This document shows positions 559-59,904 of a stretch of DNA of 64,000 nt, piece by piece. The position numbers and the translations under genes were made by a program. The first letter of the stretch is position 1; every line of letters starts with the position of its first letter. Origin of the DNA: an uncultured Bacilli bacterium (GTDB lineage: Bacteria; Bacillota_I; Bacilli_A; RF39; UBA660); NCBI GenBank assembly GCA_910580185.1, contig CAJTWC010000003.1, positions 103,093 to 167,092 of the forward strand, written 5' to 3'. The notes beneath the pieces were generated by a model. That model saw only the letters and a list, made by a program, of their open reading frames with translations, made no database searches and had not been told where the DNA came from.

Positions 559-1467
559 TTGTTGAAAATAAAATATACAATAGGAAAAAATATGAAAGAT
601 AAAAAAAACATAATTTTAATTTATATACTTCTTATATTAGAATTTCTATTATTATTTAACTCTAAAACAATAATAGAAAGTGTTAAAGAATCATCTTTGA
701 TGTTTGTTTTAAAAATACTTCCATCACTATTTCCAACCATGGTACTTGGTAGCCTGTTAATTAAAAATAACATACACATAATAATTCCAAATTTTATAAA
801 ACGTTTTTTTAATAATGTTTTTAACTTTAGCGATATAGCAACTAGTATATTTATAATTTCAATGTTAACCGGAACTCCAAGTAACGCATTATACATAAAT
901 GAATACGTCGATAAAAAACTTATATCTGAAAAAGAAGCTGAGTGCCTTATTTGTTCAACTCATTTTATAAATCCATTATTCGTAATTGGTGGCGTTGGTG
1001 TTGGCGTCTTTAATAGTACTAAAATAGGATTTTTACTACTAATACTTTTATGGACAAATAATTTTTTCAAAGCATACCTAAATAGAAATAATTTACATAA
1101 AACAAATAATAATCATATTCATATAGAGCAAAAAAACATAATAAAAACATTAATAGAATCAATTAAAAACAATATTAATTCATTATTAATGATATTTGGT
1201 ATAGTAACTACGTTTAATATATTAGTAACCTTAATATCAAATATTTTTAATTTATCATACCTAGCTAATTGTATAATTAATGGCTTTTTAGAAATGACTG
1301 GTGGAATAATTAAATTATCATCTTTAAATATAAATCTCATACCAAAATTTATTTTAGCATACATATTTTTAAATTTTGGTGGGATATGTATTCATATGCA
1401 AACTTTTGGGATGTTAGAAAATAAAAAAATAAGATATAGTAAATACCTTATTTTTAGATTATTTTAA
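559..1467 (+). CDS. YlbJ-like integral membrane protein with nucleoside-recognition (Gate) domains; real start probably the ATG at 592
   Basis: Polytopic membrane protein; LMFVLKILPSLFPTMVLGSLL and a second Gate-like segment resemble the sporulation integral membrane protein YlbJ family. Confidence 0.55.
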   Translation: MLKIKYTIGKNMKDKKNIILIYILLILEFLLLFNSKTIIESVKESSLMFVLKILPSLFPTMVLGSLLIKNNIHIIIPNFIKRFFNNVFNFSDIATSIFIISMLTGTPSNALYINEYVDKKLISEKEAECLICSTHFINPLFVIGGVGVGVFNSTKIGFLLLILLWTNNFFKAYLNRNNLHKTNNNHIHIEQKNIIKTLIESIKNNINSLLMIFGIVTTFNILVTLISNIFNLSYLANCIINGFLEMTGGIIKLSSLNINLIPKFILAYIFLNFGGICIHMQTFGMLENKKIRYSKYLIFRLF

Positions 1468-3266
1468 TTATTTTTACCAGTATCACCTACGTAAGATTTA
1501 CCTTTTTTATTACCTGAGATATAAACGTAAGGCGCTATTACATTTTTACCATATATAGGATATCCATTATTATCATACCTGTTATAAGACATTCCAACGT
1601 GTAGATGTGGGCCACTTGAATTTCCAGTATTTCCCGACGTTCCTATTTTTTGCCCTTGTTTTACTTTATCTCCAACTTTTACTGAAATACTATTTAAATG
1701 TCCATAGACAGTATAATACTTTTTACTATCTATTACATGTTTTAATAATACAAATTTACCAAAATGAACATATCCTTCACTTTTACAATTACTATTTGAA
1801 GAACATTTGTTAGTAGTAGTATCGGCTTTTATAACTTCACCACCATCCATTGCAACAACGGAAGTGCCTTTGCTAACTGATATATCGTTTCCACCGTGCC
1901 AAGCGCCACCATACGACGTACTATAATGCAAATGATCACTAGATGTTCTAGTACCTTCTGACCAACTACCTGTATTTTTAGTTGGATGAGCTAACTTACC
2001 AGTTACATATGCTAGCGTTTGATCTATTTTATATTTATCAGTATAGCAAACTTTATGGTTACCAGCCTCATCATAAACAACTATTTTTCCTTGCCTTGTC
2101 CTAGCACCATCATCACCAAGCGATTTATTTCTTGAGCCGGTGTTATTATTAGTCCATAAATACCAACTACCATCTTTTTTATTGGTATACCATTCCCATT
2201 TTGCCGTATCACTAGTAGGTTTTATATTTAATGTTACAGCTGTTTTATACCAAGTACCATCAGCTTTTGTACCACTTGCAGTTATAGTAGGACACTTTGG
2301 CGGGGTACGATCAATTTTAATTGTTTTTGAATCACAATTTTTACTCTTTTTTGTATTAGTATTAAACACTTGGGCTCTTATTACCCTGTTTCCTTCACCA
2401 CTAATATTAACAACGTGATTATTTTTTTCATAAGACTTTGAATATTTTGTAAATCCACCTTTTCCATTATCAGCGTACCAATACCATTTATTATACAAAT
2501 ATTTTTTCTCATCCATTGATATTTTTACATAGACTTTAGATGAATTATACACACTAGCCGGATTAGCGGTAAATGTTTTATTATCCTTAGAATAAGTAAA
2601 GGTTGGACATACTATGTCCGTTTTTGCACTATTTTTAGTTGTAGACTTCTTTTTGGTAGTTTCGGTTGTCAAAACTTTGGCAGTTGTACTAGTAGTAGTT
2701 GCAGCATTATTTGAACTAGTAGTTGTACCTATAGAAGATGTGGAATCATCTGATTCTTCATCTTCATCTATCGGATCATTTGGAATAGAGCTACTAGGCG
2801 TAATATTACGCTCCGAATAAGATAAAATATTTAGAGTACAAGAGCCAATTCCCGAAGGTATTTCCTTATTAGTATATTCATATAAAGTCCTGTGATATGT
2901 TTTAGACTCATCTTGATTATAAAAATCAAAATGAAGTGCAATTATACCATCACTAACCCTGCAAATTCCTGTATTTGTTGGAGTACTAACATCAATATTT
3001 ATTATGTTCTCAATATCATCAAAAATATTATCCTTATTTAAATCATCTAAGTTTTCACCATCATTTGTTAAATCTTTATATTTAGCATCAACTATTCTAT
3101 AAGCATAATCAACATCAATAAATTTTTGAGTTTCATCATTTGCTTTCTTATAAATATCTTGAACGGTTCTTAAAGTTTGAAAAAAATAAAGCATTGCTAC
3201 TGATACTATCAAAAAACTTACTATTAATTCTACTAAAGTCATACCTTTATTATTTAATTTTTTCAT
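1464..3266 (-). CDS. prepilin-type N-terminal cleavage/methylation domain protein fused to a C-terminal M23 (LytM-type) peptidase domain
   Basis: N-terminus KG|MTLVELIV with Glu at +5 and a hydrophobic helix (class III signal); Ser/Thr-rich linker; Ig-like DxAGN segment; C-terminal HxxxD (HGGNDI) and HLH (GPHLHVG) M23 motifs. Confidence 0.75.
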   Translation of the reverse strand: MKKLNNKGMTLVELIVSFLIVSVAMLYFFQTLRTVQDIYKKANDETQKFIDVDYAYRIVDAKYKDLTNDGENLDDLNKDNIFDDIENIINIDVSTPTNTGICRVSDGIIALHFDFYNQDESKTYHRTLYEYTNKEIPSGIGSCTLNILSYSERNITPSSSIPNDPIDEDEESDDSTSSIGTTTSSNNAATTTSTTAKVLTTETTKKKSTTKNSAKTDIVCPTFTYSKDNKTFTANPASVYNSSKVYVKISMDEKKYLYNKWYWYADNGKGGFTKYSKSYEKNNHVVNISGEGNRVIRAQVFNTNTKKSKNCDSKTIKIDRTPPKCPTITASGTKADGTWYKTAVTLNIKPTSDTAKWEWYTNKKDGSWYLWTNNNTGSRNKSLGDDGARTRQGKIVVYDEAGNHKVCYTDKYKIDQTLAYVTGKLAHPTKNTGSWSEGTRTSSDHLHYSTSYGGAWHGGNDISVSKGTSVVAMDGGEVIKADTTTNKCSSNSNCKSEGYVHFGKFVLLKHVIDSKKYYTVYGHLNSISVKVGDKVKQGQKIGTSGNTGNSSGPHLHVGMSYNRYDNNGYPIYGKNVIAPYVYISGNKKGKSYVGDTGKNN

Positions 3267-3270
3267 ACTC

Positions 3271-3837
3271 TTATCCTCCTAAATTGCAATGTCTATTTGG
3301 ATTAGGATTATCTATTTTAATTGATGCATATCTAGTTTCAGTAACATTTCCACGTGAATCTTTTTTTTCAAATTTTCCTATTAATCTATAAGATGCCTTA
3401 TCATTGGTGGTTTTTTTAAGTCTTAGTAAATACCTGTTAAAATTATAATCGCTAACCCTTGGGTCTGCCATATAGCCAGTAATATATAACTCTTCTAACT
3501 CGCCAAATTTATTGCTAGATGATAGTGTTATTTCATCTAAAACATTACCAGTGATTTCTCTTGCACCAACCTCGGTTTCAGTATATCCTGTACATATGCC
3601 ACTTATTTTTGATTCAACATTACTCTTTAATGTATCATCACTAAAAATTAAATCATTATACGCCCTTAACGTATATAGATCCTCTGTTTGATCATAATAT
3701 TTAGATCTTTTTACGAAATTATCATATAATTTAGACACATTTGGGTAAACATAAGCCATCACAATAGTTACTAAGGCAATAATAACAATAGCCTCAACTA
3801 AAAAGAAACCTTTATTATTCTTTTTCATTTTTACCAC
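3271..3837 (-). CDS. type IV pilin / pseudopilin-like protein
   Basis: N-terminus KG|FFLVEAIVIIALV (G-1, F+1, E+5) followed by a hydrophobic helix; 188 aa. Confidence 0.65.
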   Translation of the reverse strand: MVKMKKNNKGFFLVEAIVIIALVTIVMAYVYPNVSKLYDNFVKRSKYYDQTEDLYTLRAYNDLIFSDDTLKSNVESKISGICTGYTETEVGAREITGNVLDEITLSSSNKFGELEELYITGYMADPRVSDYNFNRYLLRLKKTTNDKASYRLIGKFEKKDSRGNVTETRYASIKIDNPNPNRHCNLGG

Positions 3838-3925
3838 CTTTTCTTTGCTTGCTATCTTCTAAAATATATTATATAATATTATTAGCATAAAATCTAGGGG
3901 TAGATAAAAGAATATAAAGGGAGAG

Positions 3926-5251
3926 ATGTATATGTTAAAGCAGATAGACTTTACTAAATTGCCTATTACAGAAATAGTAAATGAAATTATTTATACAGGT
4001 GCTCAAGCTGGAGCAAGTGACATACATTTCGATCCAAGTGGAAAAACAATTAAAGTTAGGTTTAGAATAGATGGTATTTTAATAGATTATACGGTTATAC
4101 CTGAAGCGATAAGAAAAAATTTAATAGCAAGATTAAAAATAATTTCAGGAATGGATATAACTGAATCTAGGCTACCTCAAGATGGAGCTATTAAAACGAT
4201 TATTAAAGATATTAAATTAGATATGCGTGTTTCTTCTTTGCCTACTAATATTGGTGAGAAAATAGTTATAAGAATACTTGATTATTCTGCATCGTTAAAC
4301 GGATTAGAAAGTCTTGGGTTTTCTCCTAATAATTTAAAAAAGATGAAAGAGTTAATAAAAGAACCAAACGGAATTATATTGGTAACGGGTGCAACAGGTT
4401 CTGGTAAATCAACAACTGTTTACTCATTACTGCAAATATTAAATACACCCGAAGTTAACTTAGTAACCGTTGAAGACCCAGTTGAAATGGGAATTGATGG
4501 AATAAATCAAATACAAGTAAATAGTGAAATTGGTCTTACCTTTGCCGAGGTTTTAAGATCTATCTTGCGTCAAGACCCAGACATTATAATGATTGGAGAA
4601 ATACGTGATGATGAGACAGCTAAAATAGCCGTTAGAGCATCTATTACAGGGCACTTAGTATTATCTACAATACATACTAATAACGCTCTTGCAACTATAG
4701 AACGTTTAACAGATATGGACGTTGAAACTTATCTTTTAGCAACATCTTTAAATGGTATTGTATCTCAAAAACTTGCTAGAAGAATATGTCCACATTGCAT
4801 AAAAAAAAGACCTGCTATTGAGTATGAAAAGAAATTAATAAAAGCACAACTAGGTGTTGATATTAATGAACTTTCTTACTCTGAAGGCTGCGATAAATGT
4901 GTTGGAGGTTATAAAGGAAGAATCGCTATACACGAGGTTTTAGTAATAACTCAAGAAATAAGAGATGCTATTTCAAATGGTATTTCTAAAGACGAATTAA
5001 GAAAATTAGTATATAAAGGTGATACCACTACCCTTTTACAAGATGGATTACAAAAAGTTTTACAAGGAACAACAACGATTGAAGAAATATTAAGACTAGT
5101 AGAACTTGATGATGAATCGGCAAAGATACTTATGCATAAAGATGATTCAGTAAGTAACACATCTAATAAAAATTTAACTAACAATACTCAAGATACAACT
5201 ATAGTTCAAAATAATACACCTAAAGATGATTTTGAAATGCTTGATATATAA
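3926..5251 (+). CDS. type IV pilus / competence assembly ATPase (GspE/PilB/ComGA family); start possibly at 3932 given the AAGGGAG RBS
   Basis: Walker A GATGSGKSTT, Asp box DPDIIMIGEIRD, His box, and the C-terminal tetracysteine motif CPHC...CDKC typical of GspE/PilB. Confidence 0.85.
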   Translation: MYMLKQIDFTKLPITEIVNEIIYTGAQAGASDIHFDPSGKTIKVRFRIDGILIDYTVIPEAIRKNLIARLKIISGMDITESRLPQDGAIKTIIKDIKLDMRVSSLPTNIGEKIVIRILDYSASLNGLESLGFSPNNLKKMKELIKEPNGIILVTGATGSGKSTTVYSLLQILNTPEVNLVTVEDPVEMGIDGINQIQVNSEIGLTFAEVLRSILRQDPDIIMIGEIRDDETAKIAVRASITGHLVLSTIHTNNALATIERLTDMDVETYLLATSLNGIVSQKLARRICPHCIKKRPAIEYEKKLIKAQLGVDINELSYSEGCDKCVGGYKGRIAIHEVLVITQEIRDAISNGISKDELRKLVYKGDTTTLLQDGLQKVLQGTTTIEEILRLVELDDESAKILMHKDDSVSNTSNKNLTNNTQDTTIVQNNTPKDDFEMLDI

Positions 5252-5253
5252 TA

Positions 5254-5285
5254 AAGACCTAATATAAAATTTTATATTAGGTCTT
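5254..5285. terminator. bidirectional intrinsic terminator between the convergent ATPase gene and the 193-aa gene
   Basis: Perfect inverted repeat AAGACCTAATATAAAATTTTATATTAGGTCTT flanked by T/A runs. Confidence 0.5.
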
Positions 5286-5853: not shown

Positions 5854-5930
5854 TTTCTATTCCTCACATCTCGTGTAGTATTATAGTACTTAAATATCTA
5901 AAATGCAATAAAAACGTCAAAAAGACGTCT

Positions 5931-6764
5931 TTATCTAGTTAAAAATTCCAAAATCATGCTTAAATTTAAGCTGGTTAATAATACTATAACACTAGAGACC
6001 GAAAGATATGGTCCAAATGCTAAAACGTTATTATTATTTTTTACTAGGCTATAAACTGATAGTGGAAGCGCTATAAAAGCAGCCATAAAAATAACTACCA
6101 TTGACATATCAAAGCCTAATACTAAACCTATAATAAACATTAATTTTATATCTCCGCCGCCTAAACTTTCTTTCTTAAATAAAATATCTCCTAACACTTT
6201 AAATAAATAAAGAATTGCAAAAGCTCCAGCACCATTAAGAATCGGTATAGCAACATCAGTTAAAATATTCATCCTGTTCATTAAAGATTTTATAATCATT
6301 TCTAGAACAATTAATATTCCGCCTATTATTAGCACCTCATCGGGTATTATATAACATCTTAAATCACTTATTGTTATAATTATTAATACTGAAATAAACG
6401 TTATTGCAATAAGAAAATCAATATTCATCCCAAATACTAAGTACGACATTAAAAATAACACTCCAGTAATTAATTCAAACAACGGATATATAATAGATAT
6501 TTTATTTTTACACGATTTACACTTACCTCTTAAAAAGATGTAAGATATAACTGGTATAAGTTCATAAAACTTTAATTTATGATTACAATTAACACAGTGT
6601 GATGGTGGAAAAGCAATGGATAATTTGTTTGGTAATCTATAACCTACAACGTTATAAAAGGATCCAAATACTAATCCAAAAATAAATACTATAATTCCAA
6701 TAAAAACTTCGTTATCCACTCGTATCTTCCTTTCATTATTGTTGCATTGAAGTATACATACCAA
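5931..6764 (-). CDS. prepilin peptidase (A24 family, PilD/ComC)
   Basis: N-terminal CxxC...CxxC zinc tetrad (CVNCNHKL...CKSCKNKI), GSFYNVVGYRLP motif, polytopic membrane protein; 29-nt overlap with the upstream pilC so the start may be internal. Confidence 0.8.
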   Translation of the reverse strand: MVCILQCNNNERKIRVDNEVFIGIIVFIFGLVFGSFYNVVGYRLPNKLSIAFPPSHCVNCNHKLKFYELIPVISYIFLRGKCKSCKNKISIIYPLFELITGVLFLMSYLVFGMNIDFLIAITFISVLIIITISDLRCYIIPDEVLIIGGILIVLEMIIKSLMNRMNILTDVAIPILNGAGAFAILYLFKVLGDILFKKESLGGGDIKLMFIIGLVLGFDMSMVVIFMAAFIALPLSVYSLVKNNNNVLAFGPYLSVSSVIVLLTSLNLSMILEFLTR

Positions 6765-8589
6765 ACATTGGAATAATAACCGCTAGTAATATACCACCAA
6801 CTATAACCGCTAAAAATACTATTATAATAGGCTCAATAAGTGCTTTCATTTGGTTAATAATAGCTCTATGTTGTTCTTGGTAATAATCAGAAACCCTTTC
6901 CATCATAGGTCCTAGTCTACCTGTTTTTTCACCAGTAAGCAGCATTTGATATGCAATAATTGGAAAAGCCCAATGATCTTTAAACGCCTTTGAAATTGAA
7001 TCACCTTTATTTAGGTTTTTAGCAGTTTCATATATAAGTTTTTTATAAACTTCATTATTTGTAATTTTACTTAATACTTCCATTGAGTCGGTTATAAATA
7101 TATTATGATTTATTAAGTTTGCAAAAGTTTTAGCAAAAATAGTAATCTCATTATATATAATAATATCACCAAACACTGGTATATGCATCGTTAATTCTTG
7201 AACGTTTTTTCTAAATGTACGCGAGTTTTTAAAAGCATATATAAATACCGCGCAAATTGCAATTATAATAAAAAGTATTATATAAACGTTTGCTTGTAAA
7301 AAGTCTGATGCATTTAATATAAACTTAGTTATTGCAGGAAGTTCAGCATCCATCTCATTATATATTCCAGCAAATGACGGAATTGTAAATAACAATATAT
7401 ATACAACTACAATAATAGCAAAAACTAATATAACAATTGGATATGTTAGCGCTGATTTCATTTGTTTTCTATTTGTTTCAGATTCGCTATAATACTCAAC
7501 CATGTCATCTAACGTTTCAGTTAAATTACCAGTCATTTCAGCGGTTTTAATCATGTTTATTAATAATTTAGGAAAGGTATCTTTTCTTTTTTCCATAGCA
7601 ACACTTAAAACATCACCCATAGATAAGTCATAATATACTGCTTTCCATACGTTTTTATCATTGCCTTTTTTAGTTTGTTCTTCTAGTATTTTAACAGCCT
7701 CAGCTAGTGCTATACCAGATTTTAAATAAGCTGATAATTGCGATAGGTAAAAAATTAGTTTACTTTTCTTCATTTTATAAGTGATAATATCTCTTTTCGG
7801 TTTAGCAGCGGTAATTTCATATACCTCATATCCTTCTGCCAACAAAAATGAATGAACATCTACTCTTGATAAAGCCTCTATCGTACTTTTTTCTAACTCG
7901 CCTTTAGAATTTCTCGCTATATATTGAAATAATATAGGTTTTGCAAGTCTTGATGCGGTTTTACTATCTTTATCCTTAAACTGTTCATCTAAAACGGCTT
8001 TTTTAGCTTCTAATTCTACTTCTTCTTTTGGATTATAAGTTAGCTTTTTATAAAATCTTTTTAATTTATCTGAAAAAGTAACAGGTTCACCCTTTGCTTT
8101 TAAAGCTTCCTCTTTTTTATCCCTTTCAGCTTCAATAGCATCTTCTTTCTTTTGTTTTTCTAATTCTCTTTGCTTGCGTTCTTTTTCTCTTTTTTCATTT
8201 TCTATTCTTAATTTTTCTTGTTCTTCTATTCTTTTAAGTTCCTCTTGCCTTGCCTTTTTAACCATCTTATCAAAATACTTTTGGCGTTTTTTTATGTTTT
8301 CTTGACGCTCTTTTTTTAACTTTTCGGGATCTGTTTCTACTTGAGGAGTTTTTGGCGTATCATATGCTGATCTTACCCCTTTAACCACTTTTATTTTTTC
8401 ACCTTTTTTTATTTCAGGAATGGTAGCTTTCTTATTACTACTAGATATGTTTTGACTAATACCCTGCTTATTTTTAGTATCATTTTTTTTCATGATCCCA
8501 GATACAATATAATATGGAATAAGTAAAATAGACATAAATCCTCTATATATAAAAACGAATGGTAATAATAAAATATCTATCAAATTCAT
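6736..8589 (-). CDS. type II secretion system F family platform protein (PilC/ComGB-like) with a roughly 230-aa N-terminal extension (TM segment plus K/E-rich coiled-coil)
   Basis: C-terminal two-thirds match T2SSF-domain architecture (…ALTYPIVILVFAIIVVVYILLFTIPSFAGIY…, three TM segments); N-terminal region is charged low-complexity. Confidence 0.75.
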   Translation of the reverse strand: MNLIDILLLPFVFIYRGFMSILLIPYYIVSGIMKKNDTKNKQGISQNISSSNKKATIPEIKKGEKIKVVKGVRSAYDTPKTPQVETDPEKLKKERQENIKKRQKYFDKMVKKARQEELKRIEEQEKLRIENEKREKERKQRELEKQKKEDAIEAERDKKEEALKAKGEPVTFSDKLKRFYKKLTYNPKEEVELEAKKAVLDEQFKDKDSKTASRLAKPILFQYIARNSKGELEKSTIEALSRVDVHSFLLAEGYEVYEITAAKPKRDIITYKMKKSKLIFYLSQLSAYLKSGIALAEAVKILEEQTKKGNDKNVWKAVYYDLSMGDVLSVAMEKRKDTFPKLLINMIKTAEMTGNLTETLDDMVEYYSESETNRKQMKSALTYPIVILVFAIIVVVYILLFTIPSFAGIYNEMDAELPAITKFILNASDFLQANVYIILFIIIAICAVFIYAFKNSRTFRKNVQELTMHIPVFGDIIIYNEITIFAKTFANLINHNIFITDSMEVLSKITNNEVYKKLIYETAKNLNKGDSISKAFKDHWAFPIIAYQMLLTGEKTGRLGPMMERVSDYYQEQHRAIINQMKALIEPIIIVFLAVIVGGILLAVIIPMFGMYTSMQQ

Positions 8590-10879: not shown

Positions 10880-12618
10880 TACTTACACTCCCTTTTTTTT
10901 AAGTTACTTAATTTTTCTAATAAAACCACTTTTTTTGCAACGTTAGTTTCCGTTCTTATTTGTTCTTTTATTTTATTTATTTCATCTTTTATTATTCCAT
11001 CATCTATCGTTTTAATAAAATCCTCTATAACACCAGGTGAGACATCATCTGGTAATTTTAAATCATCTATTCTTAAAACTTCGTTAATTAACTCTTTTTT
11101 GTCCTCTAAATAAATAGTGAAATCCGTTAAATTAATATACCCATTTTTTTCATAAAATTCAAGTGTTTCCATAGCAATTCTCGACAATTTTTTATTTTTT
11201 AAATAAGAAACCTTATTTCTATATAATTCTATGGCAGTTTTATTTCTTAACATATAGTATATAAGATATTCTTCTGCTTTGTCATATTTATTTTTGCTAA
11301 TAGTTATTCTTTTATTTATTATTTTTTTCTCTTTTTTAGGTACTTTAGATACCATATCATTTATCGTATCAACATCAACACCTGTTTCTTTTGATATTTT
11401 CTTCAAGGTTAATTCATACACAACCTTATCATCAATCTTTTCTAGTTCCTTGGTGATACTTTTAATATAATTAGATACCTCGTTAAAATCATTAAAGTTT
11501 GTATTAGTTTTATTAACATCTAACCTAAATGATACAACGCTCATCAAATTATTTAAATGGTTGTTATATAAATCTATTCCTTTTTTTATTATGTAATCAT
11601 CAGGGTCTAGATTATCTTCAAGCCTTATTATTTTAGGTTCTATACCTATTTTTTCTAATGCCTCTATAGCACTTATGGTAGCTTTTTCACCTGCTTTATC
11701 CCCATCAAAACATAACACAACGTTTTTAGATAATTTTCTTATTAAATCTGCGTGCTCTTTTGTTATCGCAGTACCCATAGAAGCAACAACGTTTTTTATT
11801 CCAACGGTATATAATCTAATAACGTCCATAAATCCTTCAACGATTATTATCTGATGTTTTTCCCTTGCGTATTTCATCGCTTTATGATAATTATAAAGTA
11901 ACATTCCTTTTTTAAAGATTAAAGACTCTTTGGAGTTAACATACTTACTATCATCTTCCTCATTATATATTCTTCCAGAAAAACCAACTACTCTACCATC
12001 TAAATCATATAGTGGAAACATTATTCTGTTCCTAAAAATATCATAAGTAAAGTTTTTATTCTTGCCACATAAACCTATATCAACTAATTCATTTATATCA
12101 TAACCTTTATTAACAAGCAACTTACTTACGTTGTTATCGTTCATCGATAATCCAATTTCAAATTCTTTTATGGTTTCATCATCTAATTTTCTATCATTTA
12201 AATATTTTAACGCTTTCTTACCATATGAACTTCTAATGTTATTTTGATAATACTTATTAGTTATGTCAAACATTTTATAATATTTAATGTTTTTATCTTC
12301 TACTTTAGGTTTATCATCTACCTTTACATCAAGCATAACACCTGCTTTTTGTGCTACCTTGCTAACCGCCTCTTTAAAACTGATTTTTTCATAATTCATA
12401 ACAAAGTTAAATACGTTTCCAGATTCACCACAAACAAAGCAAGTATAGATTTGTTTTTCAGGAGAAATACTCATAGAAGGATTATGATCATCATGAAAAG
12501 GACATATAGCAAAATAATTCTTACCCTTTCTCTCAATAGGAAGGTATTCTGCAATAATATCTACAATATTTACTTTACGTTGTATATCTAAAATTATATC
12601 ATAAGGTATTTTCTCCAT
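10879..12618 (-). CDS. dnaG: DNA primase
   Basis: CHC2 zinc finger [13 protein letters not shown]...CFVCG; TOPRIM EGFMDVI...DGD; classic dnaG-sigA arrangement. Confidence 0.9.
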
Positions 12619-12675
12619 AAAACTCCTCCTATATAATTATTCGCCATTTTTTTTAAAATTCCCCTAAATTTTTTA

Positions 12676-18154: not shown

Positions 18155-18390
18155 ATAAAAAGTTCATCCTAATAAAGGATGAACTTAATTAGTCCACGGT
18201 ACCACCTTAATTCATATCTTAATGATATGCATCTTAAAATCCCTAACGCGGACTAAACGTAATTATTTACTATCATTTCTATAATTAAGCTCCCAAGCTA
18301 CCTTCAGCTATTATTCATACAAGTTTACACCATACACTTGCTCTCTTTAATAAATAAATAACCTACTCCTCTTGTTCCTTGCTTTTTTTA
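18155..18390 (-). promoter_or_regulatory. T-box riboswitch leader of the HD-valS operon
   Basis: Minus strand reads AATTAAGGTGGTACCGTGGACT (T-box consensus AATTAGGGTGGTACCGCGG) overlapping the terminator hairpin GTTCATCC-N7-GGATGAAC plus U run (18156..18194); AGAGA element further 5'. A GUA-A triplet is a candidate Val specifier but is not verified. Confidence 0.75.
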
Positions 18391-37470: not shown

Positions 37471-38058
37471 TTATAACACCTCATTTACTAAGTTTTCTAT
37501 TTTTTTATTTAAATCTTCCAAAGATCCATCATTTACTATTACGTAATCATAATTATTATAACCATCTAGACCTATTTCAGTACGATGTTTTTTTTCTTTA
37601 CTATTTAAGTTATTATCAAAATTAGGTCTTTCTACGTTTATTCTAATTACATTATTAAAGTTTTCATATATAGAATCAATTTCTTCTGGAAGTCTTGCAT
37701 CGCTTATTGTAATTGCATCACAATAATATGAATAAACCTTAATGTCTCCAATTATTCTTTTTATAAAAAACTCATTATCAATTTTATCTCTTATAACTCC
37801 AGTTCCTATTTCTTGAAGTAAGCTTCTAGGTTTAGTATCTTCCTCACCATTCCAACCTGAAATAACTTTAGCATACATTTTTATGTATGATGAAAATTGT
37901 AAATTTACACTTGTTAATTCTTTTAATTTTATAAAGTTATTTATAAGTTCACAAGTAGTATCCTTTCCTGAATTTGCTTTACCAGATACAATAAATATCT
38001 TTGGGTTTCTTTTTTTTAATTCCATAATTATCCTCCTTCTATTAAAAAGAGGTACCAA
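37471..38058 (-). CDS. P-loop dNMP-kinase-like protein (phage T4 gp1 family); start probably MELKKRNPK
   Basis: KIFIVSGKANSGKDTT matches the T4 dNMP kinase start LIFLSGVKRSGKDTT; C-terminal HRTEIGL...VIVNDGSLEDL matches HITEAGL...VITNDGSLEEL. Confidence 0.65.
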   Translation of the reverse strand: MVPLFNRRRIIMELKKRNPKIFIVSGKANSGKDTTCELINNFIKLKELTSVNLQFSSYIKMYAKVISGWNGEEDTKPRSLLQEIGTGVIRDKIDNEFFIKRIIGDIKVYSYYCDAITISDARLPEEIDSIYENFNNVIRINVERPNFDNNLNSKEKKHRTEIGLDGYNNYDYVIVNDGSLEDLNKKIENLVNEVL

Positions 38059-38215
38059 GGCTATCGCTAGGAACGATTATGCCGTGGTACCATCCTATTT
38101 TGTTCTTAATTTTAATAACGGCTTTAAACCGGTAGTGATTAACTACTCTCCGAAAATAGCTTCAGTAACATTAAATATTAGCTTCCACCAACCGCTAACT
38201 CTCTTTAAATTAATA
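38046..38215 (-). promoter_or_regulatory. T-box riboswitch leader of the dNMP-kinase-like-alaS operon
   Basis: Minus strand AAATAGGATGGTACCACGGCATAA (T-box consensus) overlapping the terminator GGTACCACGGC...GCCTTGGTACC plus U run, directly before the GGAGG RBS; AGAGAG element; GCU-A candidate Ala specifier (unverified). Confidence 0.7.
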
Positions 38216-38284
38216 ATTACTTACTAATTTTTCATCAACAAATTAAATATATATATATTATATCAGATTATATATATAAAGTCA

Positions 38285-40303
38285 TTAATAACTTCTAAAA
38301 TATTTTGTATATATAGCAAGTTTATTTGAATTTATATTGCCGTAGCTCAAATAATATACGTGTTTTGTTAAGTTTGGAGAATCCTTATCCCATCTTCCAC
38401 AATCCTCTGCTTTATATCCATCAGCTAAATCTGATTCTCTACAATCTCTAAGTTGCAAATAAGAATTATCTTCATTTATCTTTATCTGTATGCCACCGTC
38501 AGCTCTTCTAGTAAATAATTTTGATGTATAATCTGAAGTATCAAATCCTTCTTTTACTTTTGTGTAAATATAATCACTTACAGTATCATCAGACCATTTT
38601 ATCTTATAAACTAGTCTTCTTTCGAAATCTCCTACATACATACACGCAGAACCAGCATATGTCATCCAATTATTATTCCAAGCGACATTCCATTTCTGGG
38701 CATGAGTATAATTTTCACCAACGTTTAAAATGATTGAATTAATTCCCCTTTTATATCTATTATCATAGTCATATGTACCTGAACAAGCAAATATACCCTT
38801 ACCAGAATTTGTTCCAATAGGGCCAGCGCCACTCATACCGCCATCTTTAACGTCCCTTTCGTCAAGCATTACTGCTATATCAGATATAGAACAATCTTCT
38901 TTAGCGTCACAACTGCCACCTGTATACTTATCTACTTTGGCTCTATAACCACTATTAGCGCAAGAACCACTAAGTTTAGTTTCGGAGCATTCGCTGTATA
39001 ATTTAACTGTTGTTGAACAAGTTCCTGTATTTCCTGCAATGTCGGTCATATTAATTGTCACTGTCCTGTTACCCGCTGCAGTAACATAAAATTTATCAAT
39101 ATCATTTGGTTTTGTTTGACTAAATTCATAAGTAGGTGCTTCATCCCATTTATCAGTTTTCCAGGTCCAAGTATTAACATCATCAGAAATACTATTTGTC
39201 ATAAAGTAAGCTGGCCCTTTAAACCACCCATTTTTCATTTTATTAGTAGTTTTTGGTTCTATACTACAACTAGGAGAGGTATTATCATAGCCATATTTTG
39301 AACCGCATCTTCTTTGATTACCCGCCTTATCTTTAACCACTGCATTATAATATCCAGACCTAGATGTAATATTTTCAGAATACGTGTTAGCACTACTTTT
39401 TCTAACTAACTCCGATTCCTTATACTGATAAATACCATCAACACCGCTATTAACGGTTCCCTCATCGTTTCCTGTATATGTTATTCTAGGTTGATTACCT
39501 TTCTTATACCACTGTATATCTCCAACTTTATTACCGATTGTTCCTCCACTGACATTATAGGAACAACTTGGATATTTAGTATCCTTTCTAATTGTAGGTT
39601 TTGCAATCCACTTTTTCCCTGATATGTTTTCTAACTCCACATCAACACTTTTATTAATATCATTTTCTATAGTAGTGCAATATCCATTAGCTTCTTTAGT
39701 GGAAATAACTATTCCATCTATTTTAGCACTTGCAATTGCACCATTACCTTTTGTATCGGGCTTTATACAAACCTTTAATTTTCCTCTTTCTCCTAATTTG
39801 GTAATATTAAACCAACCATCATTAGATAATTTTGTTGTACCATTTTCTTTATAATAATTAACTTCTCCAGATGGTCCACCAACATCTTTTGTTTCTACTA
39901 AATTTTTATTTTCACATTTACCATCTACTTTAGCAACTTTAGTATTACCATTAAAAGAAGCAATATATTTACTTCCTTCTTTTGTTACACTGACTTCTGA
40001 GCATTCATCTAAAGAAGTCCCATCTCTTGGGTCAATTACCTTGCCTAAATAATCCTCTTGTACTAATTTTCCAACCGTAATTGATCCAGAAGACCTATCT
40101 GATAATCCTTCAAATAAATATTCATTAGCTATAAAGTAATCCGTTGCTGCCGCTTCTACTTGAAGTTTTACCGTTTTCCATGATTCATCTTTTTTGTTTT
40201 TGCTAACCTTATTAAAACTTATTATTGCAAGTACAAGTATAGTTAGCATTAATGTTATTGTTATTAGTAATTCTACTAATGTAAAACCGTTTTTCTTTTT
40301 CAT
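38285..40303 (-). CDS. giant prepilin-type protein (672 aa) with a Cys-rich extracellular region
   Basis: N-terminus NG|FTLVELLITITLML (E+5), a roughly 110-aa conserved pilin-like head shared with the next gene, Ig-like DKAGN segment, many Cys and NxS/T sites. Confidence 0.65.
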   Translation of the reverse strand: MKKKNGFTLVELLITITLMLTILVLAIISFNKVSKNKKDESWKTVKLQVEAAATDYFIANEYLFEGLSDRSSGSITVGKLVQEDYLGKVIDPRDGTSLDECSEVSVTKEGSKYIASFNGNTKVAKVDGKCENKNLVETKDVGGPSGEVNYYKENGTTKLSNDGWFNITKLGERGKLKVCIKPDTKGNGAIASAKIDGIVISTKEANGYCTTIENDINKSVDVELENISGKKWIAKPTIRKDTKYPSCSYNVSGGTIGNKVGDIQWYKKGNQPRITYTGNDEGTVNSGVDGIYQYKESELVRKSSANTYSENITSRSGYYNAVVKDKAGNQRRCGSKYGYDNTSPSCSIEPKTTNKMKNGWFKGPAYFMTNSISDDVNTWTWKTDKWDEAPTYEFSQTKPNDIDKFYVTAAGNRTVTINMTDIAGNTGTCSTTVKLYSECSETKLSGSCANSGYRAKVDKYTGGSCDAKEDCSISDIAVMLDERDVKDGGMSGAGPIGTNSGKGIFACSGTYDYDNRYKRGINSIILNVGENYTHAQKWNVAWNNNWMTYAGSACMYVGDFERRLVYKIKWSDDTVSDYIYTKVKEGFDTSDYTSKLFTRRADGGIQIKINEDNSYLQLRDCRESDLADGYKAEDCGRWDKDSPNLTKHVYYLSYGNINSNKLAIYTKYFRSY

Positions 40304-40420
40304 AACGCACTCCTTTATTCTAAATAAATATTATCATATTAACACGTTTTTTTCAATATTAGTTTGGTTATATATAGCCTAATTATGTAAAAAGAGTAAA
40401 TAAATTACGCCTTTTACATA

Positions 40421-42178
40421 CTAATCAATTTCAATGTCACTATATGTCCAAGTATCATAGTTTCTACCTCTACATATAGTAACTTTTTCTTTAGAACACT
40501 TGCTTGAATCATCTATTTTTACAACAGCACATACTGTCACATATCTATTTTTAGATGGGTTACATTTGCTTGAACCTGTCATATAAGCACTACAACCTGT
40601 TCTTTTATAAAATGTTTTGTTATCTATTGCAGTACTGTGCCAAGAAATATGATGATTAGTTTTATTAAAGCTACTTCCCCATTCTCCTGCAAATCCTTCT
40701 AAAGTAAAACTATTCTTCGTTTTTAATATTGCGCATGCTTGTTCACCATTGGTTTTATTATCAGCGTAAGTCCAAGGCCCTATTCCATTGCAAGAAACAT
40801 TAACGCCTAAATTAATATCAAAACTATCAATCATCCCATATATATCATTACTTTTAGTTATCTCACAAGTAGTACAGTTTTTTGTATCTTTTTCAGTATC
40901 ACTTGAGCAAACACTTCCGTCATATGTAGATATTTTTTTTACGGTTCTAGTCCTAGTTTTTATGCCCCCTTTGCACTTTCCATATTCTGACCAAGAACCT
41001 TTTTGGGTTTTTATACCACCACAATCGGAATATCTAGTCGTTTTATTAGAACAGTTATTATTAGAATTTTTATCTTTAGTATTACTTTCTTGCAATATTT
41101 TTCCATTACCACACTTATTACTACACGTTGCGTCGCTTTTATTATACCAATTTCCATCTGTTACTCTATTTTGCACTTCACATTCTTTATACAAAGTATA
41201 CTGATTACTAATAGTATTTTCATTTCCGGCTTTATCTTTTATTTTAACTAAGACATTTTTTGTAGAGCCATCATATTTAATATTATTTTCAAAACTGTAG
41301 TCAACATTATTTTTAGTCCATTTTAATTTTCCTACATTCTTATTTTCAAGATAATTTGTATTTCCTATTTTAACAAATTCTATTCCACTTAAATTATCAT
41401 TTACATCAAAGTTTAATTTAACATTCCTTGATGGCCATGTATCTTTACTTTTAATTGATATGTTCCCATCAGGCAAAGTAACATCCCTACGGTAGCTTAT
41501 TTGCGTCATATATTTTTTTCCAGATGAATTAGTAACTATAATATTCAATGTTTTTCCGCTTGTTTCATCAATTATTTTATATTCTGTACCAGTTATATTA
41601 CCAATTATAGTTGATATAATAGGGCCATTACCATTAGTTTTTGGGTATACAACAACACTCGGATCTTTATGTTGAACATTAAGCCATGATGGAAAATTAT
41701 TATATTCTTTATTGCCATATTTTGCTTTAACCACAGCGGTAGGACCACCTGGTTCTATCATAGCAACGGAATCAATAATATCACAATTTTTATTTTCGGA
41801 GTATTTTGAACTTTCATCAAATTTAACATCATACTTATTTTTAACTTTTGTTACGTTTACTATTGCACACTTCGATATTGATTTACCCGTAACTGGATCA
41901 ATTACTTTATTTAAATAATCCTCTTTCACCAATTTTCCTACAGAAATATTTCCATTACTACCATTTATTAATCCTTCAAACAAATATTCATTATTAGTAA
42001 AATATTCTTGCGCTGCATCTTCTATTTCTTTTTCTACGAGTTTCCATGAATCTTCCTTTTTAGCTTTACTTACCCTATTAAAATTTATTATTGCAAGTAC
42101 AAGTATTAATAACATTAATGATATTGTTATTATCAATTCAACTAATGTAAAACCATTTTGCTTTTTCATAAAAACCAC
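40421..42178 (-). CDS. giant prepilin-type protein paralog (585 aa), Cys-rich
   Basis: N-terminus NG|FTLVELIITISLML; the first roughly 110 aa are near-identical in pattern to 38285..40303, then divergent; KDKAGNEN Ig-like segment. Confidence 0.65.
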   Translation of the reverse strand: MVFMKKQNGFTLVELIITISLMLLILVLAIINFNRVSKAKKEDSWKLVEKEIEDAAQEYFTNNEYLFEGLINGSNGNISVGKLVKEDYLNKVIDPVTGKSISKCAIVNVTKVKNKYDVKFDESSKYSENKNCDIIDSVAMIEPGGPTAVVKAKYGNKEYNNFPSWLNVQHKDPSVVVYPKTNGNGPIISTIIGNITGTEYKIIDETSGKTLNIIVTNSSGKKYMTQISYRRDVTLPDGNISIKSKDTWPSRNVKLNFDVNDNLSGIEFVKIGNTNYLENKNVGKLKWTKNNVDYSFENNIKYDGSTKNVLVKIKDKAGNENTISNQYTLYKECEVQNRVTDGNWYNKSDATCSNKCGNGKILQESNTKDKNSNNNCSNKTTRYSDCGGIKTQKGSWSEYGKCKGGIKTRTRTVKKISTYDGSVCSSDTEKDTKNCTTCEITKSNDIYGMIDSFDINLGVNVSCNGIGPWTYADNKTNGEQACAILKTKNSFTLEGFAGEWGSSFNKTNHHISWHSTAIDNKTFYKRTGCSAYMTGSSKCNPSKNRYVTVCAVVKIDDSSKCSKEKVTICRGRNYDTWTYSDIEID

Positions 42179-42253
42179 CTTCTTATTATATATTTATATA
42201 TTAACACATCAAAACTTCTAATTCAATTAAATAAACCTTACTTTACGTAAGGC

Positions 42254-42814
42254 TTATTTCTTTTTAATATAAATTGCATTTATCTCTTCTTCATTTCTTT
42301 TTAATATAAAATTATCAATTATATCTAAAACAGCATAAATAATAATAAATATACCTATTACCTGAGTTATCACTAAAACACTTTCAAGTGGATTAATTAA
42401 AAGTATAATACCCCAAGCAAAAGTTAAAAACGATATTAATAACGTGTATTTCCAATCTGTTTTATCTAGTTTTTTTAACACTAAAGCATATTGGAATTTA
42501 GTAACTGAATTAACTATAATCCATATTCCTAATATAATTGGAAATATGGTTGCAAGCATAGTAGGATTAAATATCAAATACAATCCTGCAATTATAACAA
42601 GCACTCCATATACTAAATCAAAATCAAGTGCATTAATACCATAATCTGATCTAAAGTACCTTATTATTGATAATGATCCTAATACTAATAATACTCCTCC
42701 TATTATATATGAGATAGTTGTTATCGTAGCATCAGGTCTAATAAATAAAAATAATCCTAATACTACAAATATAATTGATGTTACAAGTGATAAACTAAAA
42801 TTTTTCTTTTTCAT
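42254..42814 (-). CDS. HdeD/DUF308-family small membrane protein
   Basis: Repeated short TM helices with the DUF308 pattern (IIFVVLGLFLFIRP...GVLLVLGSLSII). Confidence 0.5.
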   Translation of the reverse strand: MKKKNFSLSLVTSIIFVVLGLFLFIRPDATITTISYIIGGVLLVLGSLSIIRYFRSDYGINALDFDLVYGVLVIIAGLYLIFNPTMLATIFPIILGIWIIVNSVTKFQYALVLKKLDKTDWKYTLLISFLTFAWGIILLINPLESVLVITQVIGIFIIIYAVLDIIDNFILKRNEEEINAIYIKKK

Positions 42815-42879
42815 TCTTTTCCTCCCATATTTTTATTATAACACTTAATTAGACAAAAAAATGGTAAATTTACCATTTT

Positions 42880-44355
42880 TTATCTTAATAATTTTTCACC
42901 ATCAAGGTCATATGTAACTGTCTTATCATCAATATATTTTACATGATAATCAGCAAGTATATAAGACGTAGGAACATTTTCATATGATATATTATTACAA
43001 ATTTCACTAATACTTTGTTTACTTATCTTTCCGCTTAATACATCTTCTTCAGAACAATATTTTTCAAAAGATCTTTCTGTCATTAAATTATTTTTTTCCT
43101 TATTAGTTAAATTAATTTTTTCACCTGTTATAACATCATCAAAATACATTCCATTGCTATCATAAGTAATATAACCACATGAACAAGCTTTTTCGTGTTC
43201 ATATAAATCATAATCGTATAATATTCTTAAACGTGCTCCATCTTCTCTTATAAATAAAGCTTCATCGCTATTAGCTGTTAATCTTGTGCCTACTCTTACT
43301 TTGCTTGTTAAATCAAATTTATGTGGGCTATCTATAGCAATTAAGTTTTGCATTAATTCTTCAATTTTTATTTTAGATACTACAGCATTAATATTTTTCT
43401 TACACACTTCTTTAACATCATAGCTAGATAATTTTAATTCCATACCATCCATAGTATCTTCTATAAAAGCTTTAGAAATAATACCATTAATCGCAGCTTC
43501 AGTACTAATAACTGAACAAAATGGAACTGCCCTAAAATCACAAGAATTAAATTTTGAATCATCATTCAATTCAATAGTTACCCCAGTTATAGCATTTTCA
43601 AAATATACTCCAAAAGCACTATATGTAATATAACCACAACTAAAAGTATCTTCGTATGTAGATGAGTTACTAGTAACTAAAAGTTGTAAAACAGCACCAT
43701 CTTCTCTTTTTAATAAAATATCATCTTGATTAATAAGTTCTATATCATTATTTTTAGTATTATTCGTTTTATTTTTATCAACAATACTTGAGTCTAATAA
43801 ATTATAAGTACACTCGCTACCTTCTACACTTTTAATTTTAAATTCTGTATCTAATTCAGTTAATTCTGCATTTACATCCTTTTTAACAGCAAGATTAGTG
43901 TACGTTGGATAACCCTTATTAGTCAATTTTAATTTTTTCATATTTTTTCTTACTAAATCAATATCAATAATTCCATCTAAAACATCATCTTGCTTACATA
44001 CAGATGAAAAACTAGTATAATAAATTTCACAATCATTAAACATAGATATATCTGATAAATTAAACCTTGTCTTTGATAAAGCATCTTCAAAATATACACC
44101 ATATTTATCATAAGTTGCATAACCTGCATAAAACTTTGTTTCATCAAGACTTACTTTATCAATACATAGTAAGGTAAGTAAAGAACCATCTTCCCTTTTA
44201 AATAATATATCTTCCATTTCATCTAAAGACTCTGTAGCTACTATAGATTGTGTTTCGGATTTAGTTTGATTAGCATTACATCCTACAAAAGTAAAGGCTA
44301 TTGTACCAGCCAAAAGCATTGATAAAAACTTATTATTCACTTTTAATTTTCCCAT
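42880..44355 (-). CDS. lipoprotein with three tandem roughly 100-aa repeat domains
   Basis: Lipobox FTFVGC; repeats LFKREDGSLLTLL.../LLKREDGAVLQLL.../LFIREDGARLRIL... each with CGY(I/A)TY...GVYF(E/D). Confidence 0.55.
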   Translation of the reverse strand: MGKLKVNNKFLSMLLAGTIAFTFVGCNANQTKSETQSIVATESLDEMEDILFKREDGSLLTLLCIDKVSLDETKFYAGYATYDKYGVYFEDALSKTRFNLSDISMFNDCEIYYTSFSSVCKQDDVLDGIIDIDLVRKNMKKLKLTNKGYPTYTNLAVKKDVNAELTELDTEFKIKSVEGSECTYNLLDSSIVDKNKTNNTKNNDIELINQDDILLKREDGAVLQLLVTSNSSTYEDTFSCGYITYSAFGVYFENAITGVTIELNDDSKFNSCDFRAVPFCSVISTEAAINGIISKAFIEDTMDGMELKLSSYDVKEVCKKNINAVVSKIKIEELMQNLIAIDSPHKFDLTSKVRVGTRLTANSDEALFIREDGARLRILYDYDLYEHEKACSCGYITYDSNGMYFDDVITGEKINLTNKEKNNLMTERSFEKYCSEEDVLSGKISKQSISEICNNISYENVPTSYILADYHVKYIDDKTVTYDLDGEKLLR

Positions 44356-44489
44356 TCAAATATCTCCTTCTTCATTTAAATATGTATTATAATAGCATAT
44401 CTTTCCTTCAATTATCAAGTATATTTTGTGGGGAAAATCAAAAAGAAATAGACAATTTGCCTATTTCTAAAGTGTTTCCATAAAAGAAA

Positions 44490-44654
44490 CTACTGTTCCA
44501 TCATATTTTCTAACTTTTTACTTGCGTTTTTCTTAACCTTATTTATTGTTTGCTTAATACCACCATTGCAAGAACATTCATTATAACAATAAAATGCACC
44601 TGATCCTACGGCAACACCTAAAAGCATCCATCCAAGATTATTTAGTGCTTTCAT
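44490..44654 (-). CDS. small (54 aa) membrane protein with a CxC motif
   Basis: GGAAGGTGA RBS 6 nt upstream of the ATG; one TM helix, NECSCNGG, basic C-tail; coordinates approximate to within a few nt. Confidence 0.4.
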   Translation of the reverse strand: MKALNNLGWMLLGVAVGSGAFYCYNECSCNGGIKQTINKVKKNASKKLENMMEQ

Positions 44655-59674: not shown

Positions 59675-59895
59675 GTAAAAAGTCCATCCTAATTAAAGGA
59701 TGAACTTGTAAAGTCCACGGTACCACCTTTGTTCTAGATATTAATCTAGCACTCAAATCTCGTAACGTGAGATAACGTTTTAACCTAACAATTCAATTAA
59801 ACAGCTCCAGAACCATCTATATAGGTTTTGCTATGTATGCTTTCACCTAATCATACTCTCTTTTAATAGTTTTACCTATACTCTTTCCTTCATTG
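59675..59895 (-). promoter_or_regulatory. T-box riboswitch leader of the NUDIX-metG operon
   Basis: Minus strand CAAAGGTGGTACCGTGGACT T-box sequence overlapping terminator GTTCATCC-N8-GGATGGAC plus U run (59682..59706); AGAGAG box; AUG-A candidate Met specifier (unverified). Confidence 0.75.
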
Positions 59896-59904
59896 CTTTT
59901 AACA

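Follow-up and report, generated by a model that had tools for sequence, protein, structure and literature searches.

Modular pilins, in which a small pilin module is followed by additional, often bulky domains, are the current explanation for many functions of simple type IV filaments; to our knowledge, only two have been studied in depth, both from Streptococcus sanguinis. We analysed two adjacent genes, here called A and B, in a 64,000-nucleotide stretch of DNA (hereafter the window; assembly GCA_910580185.1, contig CAJTWC010000003.1) from an uncultured Bacilli bacterium. By their predicted architecture the two products belong to the known class of modular type IV pilins of the S. sanguinis PilB/PilC type. 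We estimate the probability that they are modular minor pilins of a type IV filament at about 65%, and by analogy with described cases they are probably adhesins displayed at the filament tip. A 2021 survey (Raynaud et al. 2021, PMC8179133) comprises more than 1,200 modular pilins with 264 architectures and lengths up to 860 aa, including one pilin with two thrombospondin repeats, and its authors consider modular pilins likely to be tip-exposed. Large multi-domain pilins thus have a precedent, and the size of about 600 aa, which an earlier note on this DNA held to be atypical, is not exceptional in itself, but the architecture with an immunoglobulin (Ig)-like stalk is new: the combination of a pilin head, an Ig-like stalk and an uncharacterised end module is absent from the ~15 most frequent architectures of the survey and from the results of term searches of its dataset (PMC8179133).

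The closest functional analogues of A and B are PilB and PilC of S. sanguinis on the one hand, and CofB and TcpB on the other. S. sanguinis PilB (with a vWA module) and PilC (with a lectin module) are modular minor pilins (PMC8179133; Shahin et al. 2023, PMC9934059). Like A and B, they come from a single-membrane bacterium, possess a short class III leader with Glu5, combine a small pilin module with a bulky non-pilin one, which the filament presumably presents, and are two different modular pilins encoded by adjacent genes. The mode of action proposed here, presentation of a module on a filament, is that of S. sanguinis PilB (PMC8179133), with A and B known from their sequences. Unlike the streptococcal proteins, A and B separate the pilin from the end module by a stalk of two or three Ig-like domains, their end modules lack a vWA or lectin signature, and they are paralogous to each other, with the head and the first Ig-like domain in common, and are encoded 30 kb from the pil genes. 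A further contrast to the streptococcal pair is that strain-level replacement of the end module is documented for A. The type IVb pilins CofB of enterotoxigenic Escherichia coli and TcpB of Vibrio cholerae are likewise large minor pilins, in which the pilin domain is followed, on a linker, by additional beta-rich domains; a location at the tip and a role in binding or initiation have been proposed for them (PMC8179133). They differ from A and B in belonging to two-membrane bacteria, in being encoded in pilus operons, and in having extra domains of the beta-repeat plus beta-sandwich type; no similarity of A and B to them was found in database and profile searches. We know of no module exchange in CofB or TcpB.

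With respect to the variable C-terminus, the closest analogues are the PilV shufflon and the pilE/pilS system of Neisseria, the mechanisms of which differ from that of A and B. PilV, a minor type IV pilin of the thin pili of IncI plasmids (PMC5430464, PMC9045228), has a constant N-terminal part and alternative C-terminal segments, which set the binding specificity; these are exchanged within one cell, by Rci-dependent inversion at sfx repeats among adjacent silent segments, whereas A varies between strains. In Neisseria a conserved pilin N-terminus is also combined with a C-terminus that varies by recombination, but there gene conversion from silent pilS copies alters a small major pilin, while A and B, as large pilins of the minor type, vary from strain to strain by entire domains. 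PilY1/PilC of type IVa pili resembles A and B as a tip-presentation carrier with diverse effector modules, a "tinkering" logic noted in PMC8179133; PilY1 is, however, not a pilin, has no class III signal and uses a beta-propeller as the carrier, while A and B bring their own pilin module. Finally, SiiE of Salmonella, RTX adhesins and GhpA of Aureispira also use tandem Ig-like domains to distance a binding region from the cell, but they are giant proteins with long runs of domains and no pilin module, and their likeness to the stalks of A and B is at the level of the fold (9-16% identity).

Compared to these systems, the family described here adds a terminal domain with no relative found outside these pilins, direct evidence at the population level that recombination replaces the displayed module and leaves the assembly interface in place, and the occurrence, at one junction, of both replacement between near-identical strains and sharing between divergent lineages. 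It is a good natural example of the "tinkering" model and as such no surprise to a specialist. Should the end modules prove to be adhesins, differences between strains in what the bacterium sticks to would be readable from this locus; the conserved carrier, with its fixed junction, would also lend itself to the display of foreign modules on pili.

Domain organization of A and B

The features of the two genes are as follows (AF2, AlphaFold2; pLDDT, predicted local distance difference test; ORF, open reading frame):

38285..40303, minus strand: gene A, predicted modular prepilin; ORF of 672 aa, N_methyl above cut-off, identical protein in 3 assemblies
40286..40303, minus strand: leader peptide of A, MKKKNG, before G/FTLVEL; from sequence, TIGR02532 19.6 bits (cut-off 16.3)
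39914..40285, minus strand: pilin module of A, residues 7-130, with alpha1 helix 9-59, a small head and invariant Cys101/Cys130; AF2, invariant columns, PDB profile hits
38996..39898, minus strand: stalk of A, three Ig-like domains, residues 136-240, 246-340 and 347-436; AF2 pLDDT mostly 85-95, Foldseek
38288..38995, minus strand: C-terminal module of A, residues 437-672, ~235 aa with 8 Cys, ending in ...LYTKYF; AF2 pLDDT <50
40421..42169, minus strand: gene B, predicted modular prepilin; ORF of 582 aa from the ATG at 42169, N_methyl above cut-off
42152..42169, minus strand: leader peptide of B, MKKQNG, the last Gly preceding the predicted prepilin peptidase cut (G/FTLVEL, Glu at +5); TIGR02532 20.7 bits (cut-off 16.3)
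41780..42151, minus strand: pilin module of B, residues 7-130, with alpha1 helix 9-59, a small beta head and invariant Cys101/Cys129; AF2, invariant columns, alpha1 profile
41195..41764, minus strand: Ig-like domains 1 (residues 136-230) and 2 (234-325, containing DKAGN) of B; AF2 pLDDT 85-96, Foldseek matches to tandem-Ig adhesin stalks
40874..41182, minus strand: hairpins of B resembling thrombospondin type-1 repeats (TSR), residues ~330-432 (CSNKCGNG..., WSEYGKC...TRTRT...); AF2 pLDDT ~85
40424..40873, minus strand: C-terminal module of B, residues 433-582, 7 Cys; AF2 pLDDT <50, no confident fold
40028..40357, minus strand: direct repeat, 5' end of A and ~50 nt upstream, matching 41894-42227 (5' end of B and upstream) at ~75% DNA identity

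The two genes are adjacent ORFs, as had been noted earlier, and are arranged head to tail on the minus strand. The start of B is most likely the ATG at 42169, three codons inside the GTG at 42178 from which 585 aa had been counted, because it is preceded by a ribosome-binding site (AAGAAGGTGG) and an upstream promoter-like site (TTGATG-16-TATAAT), and because three independent assemblies have gene calls of 582 aa. Gene A has a ribosome-binding site (AAAGGAG) and a promoter-like site within the 117-nt spacer between the genes. The promoter-like sites are consensus matches only, of which the scan yielded no more than it did in shuffled sequence.

The evidence for a pilin module is of several kinds. 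The Pfam N_methyl family matches A with 25.3 and B with 27.3 bits (cut-off 21.2), which together with the TIGR02532 scores supports well the pilin-like head with G/FTLVEL proposed in the earlier note; the motifs NEYLFEGL and VGKLV.EDYL.KVIDP..G cited there are also present in both proteins. Residues G6, F7, T8, L9, E11 and L12 are invariant in 45/45 aligned relatives, in all of which Glu5 of the mature protein and the full 50-residue alpha1 are strictly conserved. In the AF2 models of both proteins the alpha1 helix (9-59) is followed by strands to about residue 117, forming a minimal head of ~70 residues. A profile of the head matches alpha1 of pilins whose filaments have been solved, namely PilA-N of Geobacter (9.4e-8), PilA of Myxococcus (8tj2, 4.9e-6), PilE1 of S. 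sanguinis (8pfb, 1.7e-5) and MshA (3.6e-5), as well as Thermus and Neisseria pilins. The two invariant Cys residues of the head could form the disulfide typical of pilin heads. Thus, A and B have the class III signal peptide and, by prediction, the long alpha1 and beta head that define a type IV pilin, and, according to AF2 and Foldseek, the extra non-pilin domains after it that define a modular pilin; everything that sequence can tell about membership in either class was found in both. A regular-expression scan of all six frames revealed only four prepilin-type N-termini in the 64 kb, those of A and B and of the ORFs 3271-3837 and 1464-3266 discussed below.

The first ~110 residues of A and B, which had been described as near-identical, share 72 of 110 residues (65%), and the similarity continues well beyond them, ending only after the first Ig-like domain, at a conserved D..T..P motif (residue ~245; BLASTP, 43% identity over the first 246 residues, E 5e-51). 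No similarity is detectable further on, so that the complete divergence of the C-terminal parts noted earlier holds for the tails but begins only at residue ~245 instead of ~110.

The structure predictions, for which curated alignments of relatives trimmed to the homologous parts were used as input, are confident for the first ~435 residues of both proteins. The DKAGN segments, previously suggested to be Ig-like, lie within confidently predicted beta-sandwiches. In A the stalk domains end with D.AGN ... D(N/K)T.P.C linker motifs, and a Foldseek search of the stalk against PDB retrieved SiiE (2yn5, E 5.7e-9), RTX adhesin repeats, GhpA and an ice-binding adhesin; in B the second Ig-like domain shows a weak match to DUF7743 of Pfam (E 4.6e-4, below the cut-off). 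The hairpins that follow in B score below the Pfam cut-offs (TSP1_spondin 17.8 versus 41 bits, TSP_1 14.7 versus 21.6), although two relatives, P0016 and P0031, pass them (TSP1_ADAMTS 31.6 and 31.7 versus 23.8; TSP_1 24.4 and 24.2 versus 21.6), P0031 being alignable with B across B residues 4-477; from these scores we class the region as "TSR-like" and not as a demonstrated member of the TSP1 family.

Structure prediction of the C-terminal regions, one of the checks proposed in the earlier note, thus succeeded for the Ig-like and hairpin parts and failed (pLDDT <50) for residues 440-672 of A and 433-582 of B. The terminal 237 residues of A were compared by HMMER with 1.84 billion cluster representatives and matched 11 proteins at E <= 0.001. 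The module is C-terminal in each of them, and of the eight that were fetched six have the N-terminus of the pilin family and two are N-terminally incomplete. An alignment of ten copies is well conserved, with invariant Cys, His, Asp, Arg and Trp residues and the common end ...SN.V.LYTKYF, and its profile found no relative among PDB sequences or Pfam families. As far as the data show, the end module of A is an uncharacterised domain confined to the C-terminus of this pilin family. A stretch of ~40 residues (187-227 of the 237-aa query) is matched eight times in P0079, a protein of 1950 aa, where a piece of the module may recur as a repeat. For the last 150 residues of B, homologues were found only in P0015, P0022 and B's own 90% cluster, the exhaustive HMMER search having been made for A only.

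As to composition, the proteins had been called Cys-rich and NxS/T-rich. They contain 16 (A, 2.4%) and 18 (B, 3.1%) Cys residues, an even number in both cases; this exceeds the 1.39% of the long minus-strand ORFs of the window, so the first description stands, but the enrichment is moderate. The second does not: the 11 (A) and 15 (B) N-x-S/T sequons do not significantly exceed what shuffled sequences contain (8.6 and 11.0; P = 0.23 and 0.11), and their interpretation in terms of glycosylation was rejected as an effect of Asn/Ser/Thr composition. Low complexity of the tails, which would have spoken against true modules, was likewise rejected, given a median entropy of 3.3 bits in 20-aa windows and the conservation of the tails in relatives.

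Replacement of the C-terminal part between strains

The same chromosomal locus was recovered from other samples, and its variants strongly support the earlier suggestion that the C-terminal modules are swapped. The clearest case concerns the following segment:

38242..39202, minus strand: exchanged segment of gene A, residues 368-672 and 3' untranslated region; replaced in the otherwise identical strain L007

The L007 sequence shows ~100% DNA identity to the window over 47102-39203 and 38242-33546, except for a patch in recD2. From 39202 (A residue 368) to 39001 it is ~20% diverged, and from 39001 (residue 435) no similarity is detectable until 17 nt past the stop codon (~38268), so that ~960 bp at the 3' side of A are replaced. 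The encoded protein (P0003, 615 aa) differs from A at a single position within the first 367 residues and then has a different tail with a TSR-like motif, CSETCGGG. The recD2 patch (~46300-45250) comprises ~1 kb with 87-97% identity between the window and L007, and on this pattern we take it as a second recombination tract in the same neighbourhood.

The opposite situation is found in L009, a much more distant genome, in which yceG and the 3' half of alaS match the window at 65-85% DNA identity and the 5' part of gene A does so at 73-87%. Between ~39200 and ~36150, however, the identity rises to 95-100%; this shared tract includes the third Ig-like domain and the end module of A, the T-box and the kinase gene, and it extends over the 5' part of alaS. 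Accordingly, P0002, the protein encoded in L009, has 72% identity to A in the head but 98% in the last 200 residues. The events in L007 and L009 have a common left junction at A residue ~367 (~39200), within the conserved NGWF.GPAYF, just past the inter-domain linker YDNTSPSC and at the start of the third Ig-like domain. Recombination had been expected at the boundary between head and variable region; it is found instead at residue ~367/368. In a third allele, P0087, the only difference from A is a patch at residues ~316-365, which resembles P0002.

Incongruence of heads and tails extends to the family as a whole. The homologue search yielded 72 proteins, 407-1142 aa in length, almost all of which have the N_methyl motif. 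Among 84 full-length family proteins, with the tail defined as the last 200 residues, there are ~19 unrelated types of tails; 18 pairs of proteins have heads at least 90% identical and non-homologous tails, and, conversely, four pairs have tails 85-98% identical and heads at most 75% identical. In related genomes the same place is occupied by two paralogues (L012; 574 and 561 aa) or three (L010; 692, 730 and 694 aa). Paralogues of one genome agree in 80-100% of their first 30 mature residues, compared to 50-60% for paralogues of different genomes, as seen in few genomes; such likeness of alpha1 would be expected if the polymerisation helix must match its own filament, or if gene conversion homogenises it. 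Between the second and third pilin genes of L010 there is a 155-aa ORF (12204-12671) with an N-terminal hydrophobic segment and no family match. L011 (GCA_013146545.1, 10001-13916) has a single family member of 851 aa, located between a polysaccharide-synthesis/MatE gene and secDF and followed by a 446-aa membrane-anchored protein.

We found no sign of a dedicated switching device. In tblastn searches of the 64-kb window, A and B matched only their own genes and chance sequences (E 0.25-0.47); there are no silent partial pilin copies in this window. Inverted-repeat pairs in 37900-44500 are all AT-rich, 16-37 nt long and 70-94% complementary, and do not resemble a shufflon. Near A and B, where the neighbours are DUF308, lipoprotein and kinase-like protein genes, there is no recombinase gene and no extra tail-like segment. 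The only real repeat in the region, the ~300-nt 5' ends of A and B with their upstream sequences (75% identity), corresponds to the duplicated promoter, ribosome-binding site and alpha1 part. A shufflon mechanism was therefore rejected, for lack of supporting repeats in the region, and a silent-cassette mechanism gains no support from the 64-kb window. As silent copies are missing from the window, and shufflon-like repeats and a recombinase from the region, we interpret the tail variation as allelic, produced by homologous recombination between lineages and probably not by a programmed switch. The "cassette-like diversification" of the earlier note is thus apt as a description of the evolutionary pattern, in which modules are replaced, but no dedicated cassette mechanism was found in the window to go with it.

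A further-reaching proposal, which we put forward only tentatively and regard as doubtful in its full form, is that the DUF308-alaS locus is a dedicated hotspot of diversity with a fixed junction at ~367, where units of an Ig-like domain and a module are exchanged on a conserved carrier of pilin and Ig stalk between strains and species-level lineages, that the domain ending in ...LYTKYF is a new ligand-binding fold peculiar to pilins, and that the TSR-like repeats serve host attachment. If so, populations of one bacterium would display different pilus-tip specificities, and an adhesion domain of animals would have its bacterial counterpart in the TSR-like repeats.

Assembly genes and the proposed role of A and B

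A compact type IV filament cluster is present in the same window (1464-8589):

1464..3266, minus strand: third large modular prepilin, 600 aa, MKKLNNKG/MTLVEL; Pfam N_methyl 23.1 bits, Peptidase_M23 1.2e-22
3271..3837, minus strand: small prepilin, 188 aa, G/FFLVEA; motif scan, weak NCBIfam pilin hits
3926..5251, plus strand: PilB/GspE-type assembly ATPase, 441 aa; Pfam T2SSE 5.9e-128, NCBIfam GspE 484, PilB 478 and ComGA 271 bits
5931..6764, minus strand: prepilin peptidase, A24 N-terminal domain and Peptidase_A24; Pfam 2.1e-35 and 3.6e-13, expected to process A and B
6736..8589, minus strand: PilC/GspF-type platform protein, 617 aa; Pfam T2SSF 1.4e-50, NCBIfam GspF and PilC models over residues ~220-613

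The window therefore encodes the cognate prepilin peptidase, assembly ATPase and platform protein that a type IV pilin needs. The distance from the end of the assembly genes (8589) to gene A is 29.7 kb, in agreement with the ~30 kb reported earlier. The 188-aa prepilin is the sole candidate for a major pilin within the window. The last gene of the cluster encodes the 600-aa prepilin with a Ser/Thr-rich linker, Ig-like domains (this part is 45% identical to the family member P0056) and a C-terminal M23 peptidoglycan endopeptidase. A simple architecture of pilin plus M23 was not met in a term search of the 2021 survey dataset. Such a pilin could cut the cell wall for passage of the pilus or attack other cells, and hints that wall-cutting enzymes too can ride on pilins. 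Between the peptidase and ATPase genes lies a gene for a 193-aa protein (5272-5853, minus strand) without a Pfam or NCBIfam match, which may be an unrecognised component of the machinery. The platform protein has an N-terminal extension of ~220 residues with a hydrophobic start and a long Lys/Glu-rich stretch, which might stand in for the missing alignment proteins PilM/N/O.

We propose that A and B are made as prepilins anchored in the membrane by the hydrophobic alpha1 helix, and that the prepilin peptidase (5931-6764) would cut the 6-residue leader after Gly and probably methylate Phe1. Next, the PilB-type ATPase and the PilC-type platform protein would use alpha1 to insert the pilin module into a type IV filament. 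Since each subunit carries 450-540 extra residues, it would most likely be placed at the tip of the filament, or else sparsely along it. From this position the two or three Ig-like domains would act as a rigid stalk presenting the Cys-rich, probably disulfide-stabilised terminal module to a ligand, be it on a host, on a surface or on another cell. The locus, bounded by the DUF308 gene and the alaS T-box, would diversify by duplication and by homologous recombination in the conserved Ig-like and linker sequences, moving units of "Ig domain plus terminal module" between alleles and even lineages, with alpha1 remaining matched in each genome.

Several observations weigh against this proposal. Neither PilM/N/O nor a retraction ATPase (PilT) is encoded in the 64-kb window, which bears on the type of filament. 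The N-terminal part of alpha1 (alpha1N) of A and B is only 24-32% identical to that of the 188-aa pilin over the first 25 mature residues, and therefore the partner major pilin may lie elsewhere. A and B sit among housekeeping genes, 30 kb from the machinery and apparently with promoters of their own. The hairpins of B stay below the TSP1 cut-offs given above, and the end modules of both proteins have no recognisable binding fold (pLDDT below 50, with neither Pfam nor PDB yielding a relative). All that is known of the organism comes from metagenome assemblies, and piliation, cleavage and binding are predictions from its genes.

Part of these observations would fit an anchoring function, in which A and B are processed but never polymerised, the class III signal serving for export and anchoring and the Ig-like stalk spanning the wall and exposing the terminal module on the cell surface without any pilus. 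Archaeal sugar-binding proteins of the "bindosome" use the class III signal peptide in this way. The distance from the assembly genes and the promoter-like sites, the unlike alpha1N of the cluster's small pilin, and a stalk of two or three Ig-like domains that could be long enough to traverse a Gram-positive wall, as in wall-spanning adhesins, are all compatible with it. We nevertheless think it unlikely, as the strict conservation of Glu5 and the 50-residue alpha1 in 45/45 relatives is expected of a polymerisation interface and not of a simple anchor, and the matching of alpha1N within each genome points in the same direction; moreover, those bacterial modular pilins that have been studied by experiment enter pili (PMC8179133).

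The dissimilar alpha1N of the only small pilin in the window, and the fact that A and B each possess a promoter-like site and a ribosome-binding site, could also mean that one of them is itself the major subunit of a thick filament whose surface is covered by Ig-like stalks and terminal modules. This appears highly improbable: a subunit of 60-70 kDa with a rigid stalk at every helical position would be sterically demanding, the head is minimal, with about 70 residues, and the presence of several different paralogues per genome suggests accessory rather than structural roles. We know of no precedent for such a decorated major subunit among solved type IV filaments.

The annotation of the ATPase raises a different question, as its best model is GspE (484 bits). 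Taken with the window's lack of a retraction ATPase and PilMNO, weak matches to ComG pilin models, and an M23 peptidase pilin in the cluster that could open the wall for a short pseudopilus, this would be in line with A and B as minor pseudopilins of a short pseudopilus resembling those of type II secretion or Com systems, their bulky modules capping it, as GspK does, or binding a substrate that is secreted or taken up. Such a role is quite unlikely in our opinion. The NCBIfam models ComGC/GD/GE/GF score 17-22 bits versus cut-offs of 49-80 and align with the N-terminal helix only; ComGA gives 271 bits for the ATPase versus 478-484 for PilB and GspE; and no match to GspK (T2SSK) was found in the Pfam scan at E <= 1 or the NCBIfam scan at E <= 0.01. 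Besides, hypervariable modules exchanged between strains suit an exposed ligand-binding surface more than a conserved secretion cap. Modular minor pilins of a type IV filament remain our preferred interpretation of A and B.

Genomic surroundings

The window has ~28% G+C, and nearly all of its genes, mostly housekeeping ones, are on the minus strand. A contig of the metagenome-assembled genome GCA_949956995.1 matches it with 100% identity. The gene order at the locus is recD2, a small ORF, a lipoprotein gene, DUF308, the pilin genes, a T-box, a DNMK-like kinase gene and alaS, with recD2 upstream of the pilin locus and alaS directly downstream; dnaG, sigA, proS, valS and lon are found elsewhere in the window. 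A plasmid origin of gene A was considered and rejected, as tblastn found no match in PLSDB. In the same database the best tblastn matches of the alanyl-tRNA synthetase, at ~45%, were to Bacilli chromosomes misfiled as plasmids. The right edge of the pilin locus is marked by a T-box:

38066..38247, minus strand: T-box leader of the DNMK-like/alaS operon; Rfam RF00230, 98 bits (cut-off 93)

Two further T-box leaders are located at 18172-18388 and 59693-59902, both on the minus strand; the T-box leaders and the ylbJ- and spoVID-like sporulation genes point to a spore-forming member of Bacillota. Just upstream of the pilin locus (42880-44355, minus strand) there is a gene for a predicted lipoprotein of 491 aa, the signal of which ends with FVGC and which has no family match. 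Its counterpart is absent in L012 and 243 aa long in L010, and the protein from the window contains three internal repeats (REDG..L.LL ... GY.TY...G.YF).

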